The position numbers and the translations under genes were made by a program. A DNA stretch of 9,442 nt from a virus. Taxonomy: Duplodnaviria; Heunggongvirae; Uroviricota; Caudoviricetes. The notes under the pieces are model-generated. The model was not told where the DNA came from and searched no databases. It saw only the letters and a list, made by a program, of their open reading frames with translations. Location of the stretch: IMG/VR virus record IMGVR_UViG_2548876961_000016. One strand, written 5' to 3'. Below, piece by piece: positions 1 through 3,132 of the stretch (the first letter of the stretch is position 1; each line of letters opens with the position of its first letter).

Positions 1-173
1 TGTCAGTTATCATCTTCGGTTACGGTTATCGGCAGAACGCCCTGCCGCTGACAAGAGCTTATTTGCCTGACCAATCTACTCCACATGATAGATAACTATC
101 ATTTATAACATTTCATTGATTAGTCTTTATTTTTCACTATGTTACAAATAACAACTCCGTCAAAAACAGCGAA

Positions 174-230
174 ATTAACTACACCATTAACTACACCGTT
201 TCACGAACAATATCGAACAACCACGAACAA
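174..230. repeat. Tandem 12-bp repeat ATTAACTACACC x2 followed by three CGAACAA repeats at 10-bp phasing
   Basis: ATTAACTACACC at 174-185 and 186-197; CGAACAA at 204-210, 214-220 and 224-230. Helical phasing suggests a protein-binding array. Confidence 0.55.
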
Positions 231-291
231 AGATCAACACGCTTTAACCGTTATCATTTTCCGGCCATCCGTTATGAAGCTGGTGGATGTT

Positions 292-396
292 CCCCGATAT
301 GGGTATCCCCACCTACCTGGCTTTTTTTCCGGTTAAATGTTAATCAGGCTGGTGGCCTTTACATACCCTTGATCACGGTAATGATGATTCAGGTGC
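292..396. repeat. Copy A of a roughly 105-bp direct repeat
   Basis: About 95% identical to 818-933 over the shared core CTGGCTTTTTTTCCGGTTAAA(T/C)GTTAATCAGGCTGGTGG(C/G)CTTTACATACCCTTGATCACGGTAATGATGATTCAGGTGC. Copy A carries a deletion in the leading palindrome. Confidence 0.7.
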
Positions 397-817
397 GTAC
401 CTTTTCCCCAGTGGGGTAAAAGCTCCAACCGTAACGATGTTCGTTGTGGTTGCCTTGATGGTCTGCGTGGTCATTATGACCATTCAGAATTTGAAGGGTG
501 ATGTTTCCGATCTCCTCAAATTGAGGATTGTGGAAGAATCAATGGGTTAGTCTTACTTTCCCAACATCCCCCAATGGGGGTTTTCGAAATAATCAATGGG
601 TTAGGCCATAGTGCAATTTTGCACTATGGAACAATTCCAACCAGTTATCGGCATCAGGCCCACCAGCCAACGCAATTTTGCGCTTTGCTTTAATCTCAGT
701 AAGTTACCGCGCCAATTTCCGCAGTCTGTGGAAATTGGGAAGAATCAACGGGTTAGGCTGGTTTCCCCGATGTTCGCCGCTGGCGAATTTCGAAAATATC
801 AACCAGTTACCGCCGTA

Positions 818-933
818 TCCCGATATGGTGATCCCCATATCGAGATTGGATACCTGGCTTTTTTTCCGGTTAAACGTTAATCAGGCTGGTGGGCTTTACA
901 TACCCTTGATCACGGTAATGATGATTCAGGTGC
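818..933. repeat. Copy B of the roughly 105-bp direct repeat
   Basis: See copy A. Begins with the CCCGATATGG..CCATATCG palindrome-like element and ends with ...GATTCAGGTGC. Confidence 0.7.
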
Positions 934-936
934 TTC

Positions 937-962
937 CCCGATATGGTGATCCCCATATCGGG
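937..962. repeat. Perfect inverted repeat CCCGATATGG-(6 nt)-CCATATCGGG just downstream of the 307-aa gene
   Basis: 10-bp arms. Related copies at about 819-844 (right arm 8/10) and about 293-312 (right arm degenerate). No U-tract follows on the minus strand, so it is not a canonical terminator. Confidence 0.6.
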
Positions 963-978
963 ATAGATGCTGGAAAAA

Positions 979-1902
979 TCAGCTTTTCGCCAGAACGGTG
1001 ACGGCCTTATCGAGTTTTTGCCATCCGCAATAGGTGATTGCCCTGAACGCTGTAGCGTCATTCTGGAAAAGGCTAACCGCCCCTGATTCGGTTTTTATTA
1101 CCGCCTCATCAGTTGGGGTTATAACCGTGGCTTCAACGTTAATAATCAGCTTTTGAGCGTCTATCAGCATCATGCGATCCGCCTGTTCGCTCACAATTAC
1201 CGGTATTCTCAAAAGCTCTATCTGCCAGAACTCAGCATCAGTAAGCTGTAAGGCGTTTTCTACGGGCAATATTAGCGACGACGTGGAAAGCGTGTTACCG
1301 TTCGCTATGTGCTTTTTGAAAATCTCTATGAAGTTTTCGGCCTCATCAGCACCATTAAGCACGCCCTCAGGGGATACGCCAGCCACCTCCTGATCACTGG
1401 AAAGAAATTTTTTATCTATTTCTTTCACCGATTCCGATGTGATCAAGTCTCTGATCGCTGAATTTGTACCAGGGGTGCTAAATTTGATTAGCTCGTTATT
1501 CAGCATCACAATAGCGCCAAGTTTGCACAATTTTAGCGCACTTTCGTTTACTTCTCCCTCTTTGACAGGGATTTCTTCGGCTTCTTTAAGCCATTTACTA
1601 CCCTTGCCTGATATTGAATGCAATTTTGCGCCAAACGGAAGATTAAGCGCGCTGCTGATTAGCTTGCCTGGTACAGACTGCGAAAAAATATACTCGCCAA
1701 GCTCTCTTACTATCGGCTCTGCCACCAGCGACGGCATGTTATCCGTAGTCATTCTGTTGACGATGGATTTTTCAAGAAATTTCGATACTGCCGGATCATT
1801 TCTTTTCGTCATCTCTATAGCGTCAGCATGGCTAAATTTACACGATGCCAGCACGCTGGCGGCGCGAACTGCTGACACGCCTTTCATGTTTTTACAGATC
1901 AT
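979..1902 (-). CDS. Putative HK97-fold major capsid protein homologue (307 aa); product call tentative
   Basis: Strong RBS (AGGAGGAGGAAGAAG before the ATG). A central segment (LGAIVMLNNELIKFSTPGTNSAIRDLITSESVKEIDKKFLSSDQEVAGVSPEGVLNGADE, then SSLILPVENALQL) follows the conserved HK97-family pattern (SdELl.ds...sYi...L......E...fLnGdGtg..p.Gil, then sGivlNP.dw..i). Judged by eye, not by search. Confidence 0.55.
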   Translation of the reverse strand: MICKNMKGVSAVRAASVLASCKFSHADAIEMTKRNDPAVSKFLEKSIVNRMTTDNMPSLVAEPIVRELGEYIFSQSVPGKLISSALNLPFGAKLHSISGKGSKWLKEAEEIPVKEGEVNESALKLCKLGAIVMLNNELIKFSTPGTNSAIRDLITSESVKEIDKKFLSSDQEVAGVSPEGVLNGADEAENFIEIFKKHIANGNTLSTSSLILPVENALQLTDAEFWQIELLRIPVIVSEQADRMMLIDAQKLIINVEATVITPTDEAVIKTESGAVSLFQNDATAFRAITYCGWQKLDKAVTVLAKS

Positions 1903-2053
1903 CTTCTTCCTCCTCCTGGAAGCACGGGTTTAGTGTTTCGTGAAAATATGGCATCAGAACAGCGGCGGCCTGTAACCGTATTTCGGTCGACTGCTGCTTG
2001 TCGTTCATGATTTCCGTGAGTACATCAATAGGGTCTGTGATGTATTCGCTCAT
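1892..2053 (-). CDS. Hypothetical small acidic-tailed protein (53 aa), not in the ORF track
   Basis: My translation: MSEYITDPIDVLTEIMNDKQQSTEIRLQAAAVLMPYFHETLNPCFQEEEEDDL. GAGGT lies 8 nt upstream of the ATG at 2053; it sits between the TerS-like stop (2065) and the 307-aa gene, overlapping the latter's start by 11 nt. Confidence 0.3.
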   Translation of the reverse strand: MSEYITDPIDVLTEIMNDKQQSTEIRLQAAAVLMPYFHETLNPCFQEEEEDDL

Positions 2054-2064
2054 AGTTCGCTACC

Positions 2065-2553
2065 TCAGTGTTTTAAGTCTGTTGGTGGCTTAGGGATGGG
2101 GAACCGATTTGAGTAGACACTAGCGGCATTGAGTTTTTTAACCTCTTTTTTCCCAATGCTGCCGATCTTGCGGTGGGTGAACTGGGCCAGCTTAAACGCG
2201 GCATCTAAAGCCAGTTTTGGATCTGTGTCCATGTTGTCAATCAGTATCCTGCCCATTGCTTTGATGGGGTCGGGTAGGCCGTTATCCATCATCTCAATGG
2301 TGTTAATTGATGCCCGTTCCGGTGTAACTTTTTCGGTAACTTTCTTTGTAACTTTTTTCGGTTTTGTAACCTGAAAAGTTACATCAGAAGTTACAGCCTT
2401 AAGATACTTTTTCACCTCAGGATCGTTGGATAGCTGCCAGCCTTTAACCCTTGCGGTCTTTTCGCTGTATCCCGCATGTATAGCGGCTTCCGTGGGATTT
2501 GCGCCCCTTGATAACGCATCAGCAAACCGCTTTTTTTTGGTCGTTAATGCCAT
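2065..2553 (-). CDS. Terminase small-subunit-like HTH protein (TerS-like; possible packaging-specificity factor)
   Basis: N-terminus from the internal ATG at 2553 (MALTTKKKRFADALSRGANPTEAAIHAGYSEKTARVKGWQLSNDPEVKKYLKAV) matches the TerS N-terminal DNA-binding pattern (AAI.AGYS.K.A.....L). GAGG lies 7 nt upstream of that ATG. A 4-aa periodic linker (VTKPKKVTKKVTEKVT) follows. The open frame extends to an ATG at 2688 through a G10 tract, so the start is ambiguous. Confidence 0.6.
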   Translation of the reverse strand: MALTTKKKRFADALSRGANPTEAAIHAGYSEKTARVKGWQLSNDPEVKKYLKAVTSDVTFQVTKPKKVTKKVTEKVTPERASINTIEMMDNGLPDPIKAMGRILIDNMDTDPKLALDAAFKLAQFTHRKIGSIGKKEVKKLNAASVYSNRFPIPKPPTDLKH

Positions 2554-2575
2554 GCAAAAACCTCGTTTTGAGGGG

Positions 2576-2598
2576 GTGTAACTTTTCGTGTAACTTTT
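2576..2598. repeat. Tandem direct repeat GTGTAACTTTT x2 upstream of the TerS-like gene
   Basis: Copies at about 2576-2586 and 2588-2598. The same GTAAC(T)TTT motif recurs with 12-bp period inside the gene (about 2324, 2336, 2348, 2366) and inverted (GTTAC at about 2378 and 2390). Confidence 0.4.
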
Positions 2599-2671
2599 TT
2601 GAAAAGCAAAATTTTCTACGAATGAGACGGGGGACGGTGTCCAGGGTGATCGACTTTCCGGCCGGAACACT

Positions 2672-2681
2672 CCCCCCCCCC
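2672..2681. repeat. Homopolymeric tract C10 (G10 on the coding strand) 4 nt after the ATG at 2688
   Basis: Supported independently by both ORF-track translations (MTWGGG... on minus, ...LPPPM on plus). Confidence 0.8.
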
Positions 2682-2684
2682 ATG

Positions 2685-2846
2685 TCATTGCTCACCGAGT
2701 AACGAGATCAGGCCTTCAACTTCATTACTCAGCTTGTTTATTCGTGTCTCAAGCTCTGCGATCTTTTCCATCAATGGCGCTATAGTGTCTCTTGTTTCCT
2801 CGCCAATGGCCTTAATGATGCTTGCCTCGCGTTCTGTGATAGCCAT
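2685..2846 (-). CDS. Hypothetical small coiled-coil-like protein (53 aa), not in the ORF track
   Basis: My translation: MAITEREASIIKAIGEETRDTIAPLMEKIAELETRINKLSNEVEGLISLLGEQ. The ATG is 3 nt after the upstream stop with GGTGAGG about 8 nt upstream; its TGA overlaps the ATG at 2688 (ATGA). Confidence 0.4.
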   Translation of the reverse strand: MAITEREASIIKAIGEETRDTIAPLMEKIAELETRINKLSNEVEGLISLLGEQ

Positions 2847-2849
2847 TTG

Positions 2850-3044
2850 TTATGCCTCACCTGTTGCAATGCCCAGTCTTTCGCGTAACAGCACACGTGC
2901 AAGATGACCTATTGTTGGCGTGGCGGCTCTGCCGTATATACCAGCTTCATTCATCCGGCGAATAACATCGAATTGAAGTTTTTTAAGCTCGTTTAGGATC
3001 TCGTGATCAATCATCACGGTAGCGCTTTGCTTTATCTCTTCCAC
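2850..3044 (-). CDS. Hypothetical small protein (64 aa), first gene of the packaging-like operon
   Basis: Strong RBS (AGGAGGA 5-6 nt before the ATG at 3044) and an AT-rich promoter-like region upstream (3045-3132). Sequence MEEIKQSATVMIDHEILNELKKLQFDVIRRMNEAGIYGRAATPTIGHLARVLLRERLGIATGEA. Confidence 0.55.
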   Translation of the reverse strand: MEEIKQSATVMIDHEILNELKKLQFDVIRRMNEAGIYGRAATPTIGHLARVLLRERLGIATGEA

Positions 3045-3132
3045 TTTGTTTCCTCCTGATACTTATCATCGCATAATCAGTATTTTCGATAGATTATCAT
3101 TAATCAACCATTTTTTAAGATATGAGAGATCG

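Follow-up and report, generated by a model that had tools for sequence, protein, structure and literature searches.

In phage lambda, the cos site consists of a cut site (cosN) followed by the repeated elements R3, R2 and R1 of cosB, which are bound by gpNu1, and the order of cut site, repeated elements for the small terminase (TerS) and terS is shared by the locus described here. The phage-inducible chromosomal island (PICI) EcCICFT073, with its Rpp system, carries its helper's cosN together with a different cosB, a combination of helper-like cut site and different recognition elements that has been demonstrated experimentally and whose logic appears to be the same here (PMC6739421). The DNA analysed is IMG/VR record IMGVR_UViG_2548876961_000016 (Duplodnaviria; Heunggongvirae; Uroviricota; Caudoviricetes), a stretch of 9,442 nucleotides (nt) termed the window in the following, in which a terS gene on the - strand is accompanied by short repeats upstream of and within its coding sequence. 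The main result of the analysis is that the upstream and the in-gene repeats change their motif together across related satellites and phages. We consider it probable, at roughly two in three, that positions 2323-2681 are the packaging-recognition region of a cos-type phage satellite and that its repeats are read by the satellite's own TerS; most likely, they are docking sites for this TerS beside a cos copied from Shiga-toxin-type (Stx-type) helper phages.

The locus differs from lambda in belonging to an HK97-like, HNH-dependent family with a predicted 10-nt 3' overhang (12-nt 5' overhang in lambda) and in having a TerS of the Terminase_2 fold family instead of gpNu1. It differs from EcCICFT073 in encoding a full-length TerS, where the latter encodes an Rpp that heterodimerises with the helper TerS, and from both in that some of the sites are located within the coding sequence of terS. 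The features concerned are the following.

2065-2553, - strand: terS, small terminase of 162 amino acids (aa); Pfam PF03592, PHROG 641.
2323-2370, - strand: in-gene direct array of four (A)AAGTTAC(A/C) units, with cores at 2365-2370, 2347-2352, 2336-2340 and 2323-2328.
2375-2395, - strand: in-gene inverted pair, reading GTTACA on the + strand at 2378-2383 and 2390-2395, 12 nt apart.
2576-2598, - strand: upstream repeat pair, two AAAAGTTACAC units 12 nt apart, 23-45 nt before the ATG.
2600-2681, - strand: conserved cos block, consisting of a G-run (10 G, 2672-2681), about 30 nt and then CTGGACAC-CGTCCCCCGT-CTCATTCGTAGAAAATTTT.
2627-2636, - strand: predicted 10-nt 3' cohesive end CGTCCCCCGT, by homology to two mapped or annotated ends.

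The repeat unit reads (A)AAAGTTACA on the coding (-) strand. On the + strand, GTAAC starts at 2324, 2336, 2348, 2366, 2578 and 2590 and the opposite orientation (GTTAC) at 2378 and 2390, with successive spacings of 12, 12, 18, 12, 12, 188 and 12 nt; two of these eight copies lie upstream of the terS ATG and six in the gene (two inverted, four direct). An earlier annotation made from the DNA letters (the sequence-only reading) had placed the GTAAC copies, the inverted pair and the tandem upstream pair (GTGTAACTTTT on the + strand, at 2576-2586 and 2588-2598) correctly, as a re-scan confirmed. Its four direct in-gene copies are likewise present, but their spacing is 12, 12 and 18 nt and not 12 bp throughout, and the motif GTAAC(T)TTT assigned to all four is incomplete in two of them, the copy at 2366 reading GTAACCTG, without the T-run, and that at 2336 reading GGTAAC, a match to the 5-mer only. 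All six occurrences of the octamer AAAGTTAC in the 9.4-kb window are found within 2324-2597. With at most one mismatch, GTAACTTT has 18 matches (8.6 expected), a number reached in 1 of 200 shuffles, and 8 of the window's 23 GTAAC/GTTAC sites fall inside 280 bp (random-placement P ~7.5e-5). The direct in-gene copies encode V62T, V68T, V72T and V76T of a linker in TerS that is predicted to be disordered, and the inverted pair, reading TGTAAC on the coding strand, encodes A-V54-T and D-V58-T.

Relatives of the locus (numbered L) were grouped by motif as follows; percentages are TerS identities to the window.

GTTACA upstream and in the gene, linker with Val-Thr (VT) every fourth residue: the window; E. 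coli satellite L004 (62%); Hafnia phage L007/L008 (57%).
GTTACA upstream and in the gene, Val-Thr linker, further loci: Salmonella L009/L010 (54%); satellite-like L096 (56%).
GTTAAC upstream and in the gene, Val-Asn (VN) linker: satellite-like L086; Morganella-type phages L087/L088; Dryocola phage L089; Proteus phage L091.
GTTAAC in the gene with degenerate ATTAAC upstream, Val-Asn linker: L090, a loose fit to the GTTAAC class.
GTTAAA upstream and in the gene, Val-Lys (VK) linker: Acinetobacter phage fLi-Aba03.

The comparison with L086 is the most direct. Its layout is that of the window, with one upstream copy (33 nt past the inferred cut) followed by two and three in-gene copies at 12-nt spacing, and the in-gene copies occupy the same gene coordinates but read LTSEVNFSGEKVNPKVNPKVN where the window has AVTSDVTFQVTKPKKVTKKVTEKVT. 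The inverted copies mirror the switch (TGTAAC in the window, GTTAAC in L086), and in the first of them the same nucleotides are read in different frames, GC[T GTA AC]T (A-V-T) in the window and AG[G TTA AC]T (R-L-T) in L086. A frame change through the inverted motif is also seen in L004 and L091. Across the GTTAAC clade, the place of window 2390-2395 holds GTTAAC in another frame, as R-L-T, A-L-T or M-L-T, and the counterpart of the second inverted copy is in frame (E-V-N in L086), offset by one nucleotide. Each inverted copy is preceded by an invariant T, while the amino acid to which this base belongs varies (A, D, S, G, L, R).

Codon choice within the linker is similarly restricted. All 21 Val codons of the linker VT pairs are GTT or GTA, compared with 13 of 20 elsewhere in the genes (Fisher p = 0.003), and the Thr that follows is ACA or ACT in 19 of 21, compared with 13 of 42 elsewhere (p = 9e-6), the counts being taken from five GTTACA-type genes that are not phylogenetically independent; at 54-62% protein identity, synonymous sites should be near saturation. 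GTT is always paired with ACA or ACC and GTA always with ACT, which is the spelling of GTTAC(A) or its complement, and the codons of the direct array are always GTT-ACA or GTT-ACC. Array length steps by whole 12-nt units between close alleles (4, 5 and 6 VT pairs in proteins P0003, P0004 and P0001, respectively), and Morganella-type phages have 2 to 12 VN pairs in the linker. The longest array noted is in metagenome phage L088 (2001-2600, protein P0062), with about 12 VN/IN units (GTTAAC, GTTAAT, ATTAAC) against 5 in the near-identical L087, a striking expansion given that the gene is essential. Eleven close alleles have 38 variable columns, none of them in a repeat core, a level of polymorphism too low to test core avoidance.

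These data bear on the possibility that the in-gene periodicity was selected at the protein level, as a flexible linker rich in Lys, Val and Thr, and that the upstream copies are coincidental or unrelated. Such an origin would suit repeats that are in frame with a period of four codons, and Lys-rich linkers are common among DNA-binding proteins. However, the same 8-11-mer stands in the non-coding DNA upstream, the Val and Thr codons are fixed, the T before the inverted copies is invariant despite the varying amino acid, the motif survives a frame change in other clades, VT gives way to VN and VK exactly as the upstream motif changes, and the linker is predicted to be disordered (AlphaFold2). 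On the codon, frame and covariation evidence, this explanation was rejected as largely refuted and is scarcely credible; the same evidence disposes of mere coding periodicity, which the sequence-only reading had kept as its alternative. The in-gene copies instead appear to be under DNA-level selection, since the motif covaries with the upstream copies, is independent of frame and has fixed synonymous codons, and the Val-Thr-rich peptide is in all appearance a consequence.

The DNA on the other side of the upstream pair was compared with that of related phages. The 131 nt upstream of the terS ATG contain a block that aligns with the HNH-terS intergenic region of phage 2851 and with ten other satellite and phage loci, from seven genera, the cos block being found in loci of E. 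coli, Salmonella, Hafnia, Morganella-type, Proteus, Dryocola, Enterobacter and Yokenella. Its general form is 7-12 G, about 30 nt and GGACACC-G-C-CCCCC-T-CTCA-CGCAGAGAAAAAAT, and the consensus of 12 satellite and phage loci aligned with MAFFT is GG.GGGGGGG..GGACACC.C.CCCCCTCTCA..C..AGAAAAA.T. Stx1 phage Lys8385Vzw has a record that starts with CTCACGCAGAGAAAAAATTCC and closes with ...GGACACCGCCCCCCCT, a cut that falls exactly inside this block, and the phage has been described as a cos phage with 3' cohesive ends whose cos is CGCCCCCCCT by PhageTerm (PMC7946995). The linear record of fLi-Aba03 ends ...GGACACCGCCCCCCAT and begins CGCACGCACAAAAAAAATTCC, and its last 10 nt (CGCCCCCCAT), annotated as "3' cohesive end", occupy the place homologous to window 2627-2636. 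The flanks GGACAC and CTCA are likewise shared. Because of its homology to the 3' ends of Lys8385Vzw and fLi-Aba03, window 2627-2636 is read as the probable cohesive end. Position 2634 is T in the window and C in phage 2851 and in 10 of 10 other alleles examined (CGCCCCCCGT), and the common satellite allele shares all 20 bases around the cut (GGACACCGCCCCCCGTCTCA) with phage 2851. The length of the G-run beside the predicted cohesive end varies between satellite alleles.

Judged by this homology, 2600-2681 is a cos site related to those of phages with the order HNH-TerS-TerL. The region had been put forward as a pac-like site; what lies about 30 nt from the upstream repeats is, however, a homologue of mapped 3'-cohesive-end sites, and a headful (pac) site was rejected in view of this defined cohesive-end homologue and of the HNH gene, typical of cos machines, in the related phages. 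A 10-nt 3' overhang with an adjacent HNH gene marks the HK97 type of packaging machine, in which the HNH protein gp74 assists cos cleavage with a 10-nt 3' overhang (PMC11331095). Further points of likeness to HK97 are the HNH-terS-terL-protease/capsid module and a TerS site with an A-tract a few turns downstream of the cut, 15-29 bp from cleavage (PMC11331095). HK97 differs in having one 15-bp site, a non-HTH substructure and DNA threaded through the ring, where the present locus has multiple 12-nt-spaced sites and a TerS of helix-turn-helix (HTH) type. Recognition DNA beside or inside terS, as here, is found in the pac sites of SPP1 and SF6 (G1P, same Pfam family) and in the P22 pac site in gene 3; SPP1, SF6 and P22 also have multiple contact points flanking or near the cut (PMC9611059) and an N-terminal HTH of the same family, but package by headful with imprecise cuts, whereas a defined cohesive-end site is predicted here.

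Measured from the inferred cut, the first repeat starts at 32-35 nt in 12 of 14 loci. In the window, the upstream copies are at +32 and +44 from the predicted cut and the ATG is at +73. Phage 2851, with 229 nt from cut to start, has five copies (+33, +41, +109, +132 and +147) and none in terS, and most of the compact loci (56-75 nt from cut to ATG) have one to three upstream copies and an array at gene nt ~156-230; exceptions to this spacer rule are L004 (long spacer, in-gene copies) and L092 (compact, none in the gene). The repeats are accordingly placed as in a cosB: they lie between the cut and terS, on the packaged side, and their distance from the cut is conserved. Because the non-coding copies of the window, L004, L089, L092 and fLi-Aba03 also sit 11-13 nt apart, the 12-nt spacing is not merely a codon multiple. 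In Burkholderia phage vB_E192b (TerS 38% identical), neither a cos block nor repeats could be recognised, whether in the 21 nt preceding terS or within the gene itself. A scan of viral contigs returned 75 loci but added little diversity, nearly every one being identical to one of two types, that of the window or that of the Stx phages.

Two of the loci have additional features. L004 (4348-4836) represents a related satellite family with its own HNH-like open reading frame (ORF) upstream of cos, and its long cos-to-terS spacer holds six GTTACA copies and one GTTAAC copy. The Morganella phage L090 has four GTTAAC/GTTAAT copies from 107 to 64 nt to the left of the inferred cut, at the end of its HNH gene; this left-hand cluster, which could be cosQ-like or a second TerS-binding cluster, was not seen in the other loci.

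The layout could also be read as one in which only the upstream copies, especially that at +32, are the TerS site, the in-gene array being another TerS-linked element that acts as an autoregulatory roadblock or as slippage-prone spare sites. In keeping with this, the position of the in-gene array is set by the gene and not by cos, its copy number drifts in 12-nt units (from the shorter arrays of P0003 and P0004 to the 12 units of P0062), and phage 2851 and L092 manage without in-gene copies; the sites of SPP1 G1P overlap SPP1's own promoters. Conversely, the in-gene motif is kept across genera and switches with the upstream motif, which implies that the same specificity reads both, the presence of an in-gene array in most of the compact loci suggests compensation for missing upstream sites, and no sigma-70-like promoter was found near the repeats (1850-3100). 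We regard a restriction of the TerS site to the upstream copies as unlikely. An operator or promoter role of the upstream pair was rejected for the same want of a promoter; a terminator-like match at 2560-2577 lies on the + strand, the wrong one, and is no better than chance. Rfam and tRNA scans of the window gave no hits, and a reading of the region as an RNA element was rejected on this ground.

Of the DNA-binding proteins, TerS alone is found wherever the motif occurs. In the list of 120 homologues, HTH residue 20, just before the second HTH helix, is P, S or H in 16 of 18 VT-linker proteins and Q, K or R in 19 of 19 VN-linker proteins, P never occurring outside the VT class; in the GTTAAA phage fLi-Aba03 it is N. 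GTTACA, GTTAAC and GTTAAA therefore track TerS clades and residue 20, a correlative relationship that is consistent with TerS as the reader of the repeats. The proposal of the sequence-only reading that the repeats are a packaging-recognition element tied to TerS is upheld in so far as their position is conserved and they covary with TerS clade. A reader other than TerS (a host nucleoid protein, the helper's HNH or TerL, or a satellite replication initiator acting on iterons) would be compatible with the indirect nature of the link between TerS and motif, and A-tracts with GTTA sites could be bent DNA for other factors. Several observations make it improbable, and more so than a restriction to the upstream copies: the fixed distance to cos beside terS in at least seven genera with different hosts and replication modules, the lack of an HNH gene in the window's satellite, the tracking of the TerS HTH sequence by the motif variant, and the location of PICI origins next to pri/rep (PMC6092414), which is ~1.2 kb off in this window. 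Replication iterons in particular were rejected on position and on conservation in phages.

E. coli Stx-type phages with the matching cut site use GTTAAC, and the E. coli satellites carry GTTACA; because of this, GTTACA together with the satellite's own TerS may constitute a private recognition signal, with TerS discriminating GTTACA from GTTAAC. The private packaging signal suggested earlier would be private only relative to the E. coli Stx-type phages; a Hafnia phage with HNH-TerS-TerL-capsid natively uses the GTTACA layout, and the motif is therefore neither satellite-specific nor a satellite invention. Stx1, Stx2c and PPompW prophages with a matching cut site may serve as helpers. Of 5426 E. 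coli genomes, 1244 contain the phage-type cos, in up to seven copies per genome, and NZ_CP039834.1, the sole accession shared among the matches listed, holds the satellite and five phage-type cos copies in one genome.

A mechanism can be proposed on this basis. The cut site (G-run and GGACAC-CGYCCCCCGT-CTCA) matches that of E. coli HNH-TerS-TerL phages (Pankowvirus-type Stx and PPompW prophages) almost base for base, and the helper's TerL and HNH nuclease would nick this shared cos core to give a 10-nt 3' overhang. The AAAAGTTACA repeats, from +32 to the right of the cut, would act in the manner of the R elements of lambda cosB: the HTH domains of the satellite TerS oligomer would bind the AAAAGTTACA sites and bring the helper's nuclease and motor to satellite DNA. 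Only two sites would stand upstream because the intergenic space is merely 73 nt, and the six in-gene sites, about 190 nt further on, would supply extra ones, lying in the stretch for the disordered linker, where the DNA motif would be selected and the peptide follow. By our own geometric reasoning, the 12-nt spacing might allow each subunit of a TerS ring whose HTH domains face outward to contact one site; a "nucleosome-like" TerS-ring model has been discussed and disputed (PMC9611059). With GTTACA sites and a matching TerS, the satellite would possess a signal distinct from that of its helper while keeping the helper's cut site. A broader proposal, which we put forward tentatively and at somewhat less than even odds, is that an expandable array of a protein's own binding sites in the linker codons of terS is widespread in HNH-dependent cos phages and satellites, that the VT, VN or VK linker is passive, and that a two-base switch (GTTA-CA/-AC/-AA) with a change at residue 20 (P, Q/K, N) would yield new specificities, a switch that E. 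coli satellites would have used for a private signal.

Several points weigh against the interpretation of 2323-2681 as a recognition region read by the satellite's TerS. L092 has two upstream copies only, and L093 has no recognisable copies. The in-gene array is fixed in the gene and not with respect to cos, from which it lies ~230-300 nt away in the window and ~385-440 nt away in L004, and such a gene-fixed position is unusual for a cosB element in the strict sense. Phylogeny confounds the correlation with residue 20, which is no more than suggestive, and GTTACA and GTTAAC differ at two bases only, which makes cross-recognition possible. The C-terminal tail of the satellite TerS (...PPTDLKH) differs from that of phage 2851 TerS, ...RLVVNNDNEGNG (...VVNNDNEGNG), and an interaction with the TerL of phage 2851 would not be assured. 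Binding, cutting, packaging and the identity of the helper are all deduced from comparison of sequences.

The 207-aa ORF at 2065-2688, from which the coordinates of terS had been taken, is purely mechanical in origin. The gene in fact starts at the ATG at 2553, the start already guessed in the sequence-only reading: a GAGG precedes it by 8 nt, M(A)LTT is the beginning of all homologues, and the cos site occupies part of 2554-2688. The assignment of the gene as TerS-like is confirmed by Pfam Terminase_2 (PF03592; E = 1.4e-10, 42.4 bits with a gathering cut-off of 26.1, aa 3-57) and by PHROG 641 "terminase small subunit" (E = 1.5e-43, full length, aa 1-159). The protein is 46% identical to TerS of E. 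coli Stx1a/Stx2c/PPompW-type prophages (genus Pankowvirus, e.g. phage 2851), whose gene order is HNH-terS-terL-protease/capsid, and in the phage relatives L002, L007 and L087-L093 terS adjoins terL in the order HNH-TerS-TerL-protease/capsid-portal. An AlphaFold2 model, built from 28 homologues and informative for the monomer fold only, has helices at 5-15, 20-26, 34-42 and 45-58, with a predicted local distance difference test score (pLDDT) of 89-97 over aa 1-50. The model comprises a four-helix HTH domain (aa 1-58), a linker (aa 59-83, pLDDT <50) and a helical hairpin core (aa 96-126), the Terminase_2 architecture of HTH, flexible linker and helical core. A phmmer search against PDB sequences gave terminase matches to 4zc3, 2cmp (which we take to be SF6 G1P), 3zqp and 21di, all small terminases and all weak (E 0.18-0.93). 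No RppC chain was matched at E <= 1, and an Rpp identity (RppA/B/C) of the satellite TerS was rejected on that account. Two variants of the protein are of note. P0022 resembles a recombinant, with a phage-2851-like HTH, a long linker and the C-terminal 28 aa of satellite L004 (...PEPPKFTRH), and P0109 is a frameshifted allele of the window's terS, with translation passing through the repeat array in a different frame.

All genes annotated in the window lie on the - strand. In addition to terS and several small ORFs, also on the - strand, they are as follows.

9442-8219, - strand: tyrosine integrase (int).
7357-7133, - strand: AlpA (alpA).
5519-3771, - strand: D5-type primase.
1892-2053, - strand: 53-aa ORF directly 3' of terS, resembling the oligomerisation hairpin of TerS only.
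979-1902, - strand: HK97-fold capsid-like protein of 307 aa (Pfam PF05065, E = 1.3e-6).

No terL, portal or tail gene is present among the annotated genes of the window, and no HNH gene was found in its satellite. The presence of int, alpA, replication and packaging genes in one direction, without terL, portal or tail genes, identifies the element as a PICI-type satellite, and its gene set is that of Gram-negative PICI-type satellites (PMC6092414); its earlier designation as a satellite agrees with int, alpA, the D5-type primase, terS and the capsid-like gene in a window without terL or portal. The 1-kb region around the repeats was found in 220 of 5426 complete E. coli genomes at 95-99.8% identity, always chromosomal, and among the matches listed the satellite-bearing strains are O157:H7, O111, O26 and O103.

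By tblastn against phages, the capsid-like protein shares ~24% identity with the capsid portion of the protease-capsid fusion of Stx-type/PPompW phages. Homologues of 281-321 aa are encoded downstream of terS in L004, L086, L010 and L096, and the 307-aa protein recalls SaPIbov5 Ccm, a redirector of capsid size. The 53-aa ORF matches PHROG 641 at positions 89-125 (E = 3.5e-7) and aligns with aa 90-132 of TerS by hhalign (probability 91.5%, E = 8.7e-7); BLASTP gave no match between the two, the relationship being visible to profile methods only. ORFs of 50-53 aa are also found 3' of terS in the satellites L086, L010 and L096. The product of the 53-aa ORF could co-assemble with the helper TerS or poison it. 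Beyond the last gene, window 1-979 is non-coding and repeat-rich, with an 88-nt direct repeat at 314-401 and 851-938 (95% identical), three copies of the palindrome CCCGATATGGTGATCCCCATATCGGG (293, 819 and 937) and 47-72-nt repeats at 504-604 and 738-809; this stretch may represent the end of the element, REP-like elements or accessory DNA.

As in the Staphylococcus aureus pathogenicity islands (SaPIs), whose TerS redirects the helper terminase to satellite DNA (PMC6092414), the satellite here has a TerS of its own. A capsid-homologue gene (Ccm) beside the packaging module, with a cos phage (phi12) as helper, is a point of likeness to SaPIbov5 (PMC8569155). The SaPI TerS works with pac phages, whereas a cos site, an own TerS and a capsid-like gene occur together here. 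Phages of the phi12 type depend on an HNH nuclease. To our knowledge, SaPIbov5 lacks a TerS and just bears the cos of the phage. Each component of the present locus is of a known kind (a cos site, repeats of cosB type, a TerS encoded by a satellite and, as in P22 and SPP1, recognition DNA within terS); new, as far as can be told, are their combination and the covariation within the coding sequence. We know of no report of embedded pac sites that dictate a covarying peptide repeat, and in open-access papers and bioRxiv no description was found of the cos site or repeats of these PICIs, or of linker-embedded sites with a covarying peptide. Two TerS-encoding E. coli PICIs, possibly of the window's class, were not transferable in 2018 (PMC6092414).

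For E. coli satellites with their own TerS, which are found in the 220 of 5426 complete genomes mentioned above and mostly in Shiga toxin-producing E. coli lineages, the locus offers a concrete candidate packaging signal, and the suggested helpers, the Stx1, Stx2c and PPompW prophages, would bear on the spread of DNA among Shiga-toxin-producing strains. DNA recognition by HTH-type small terminases has been called unresolved in a review (PMC9611059), and GTTACA, GTTAAC and GTTAAA are natural variants with which it may be studied. The region further provides what appears to be a clean example of an array of DNA-binding sites constraining the protein sequence that it overlaps.

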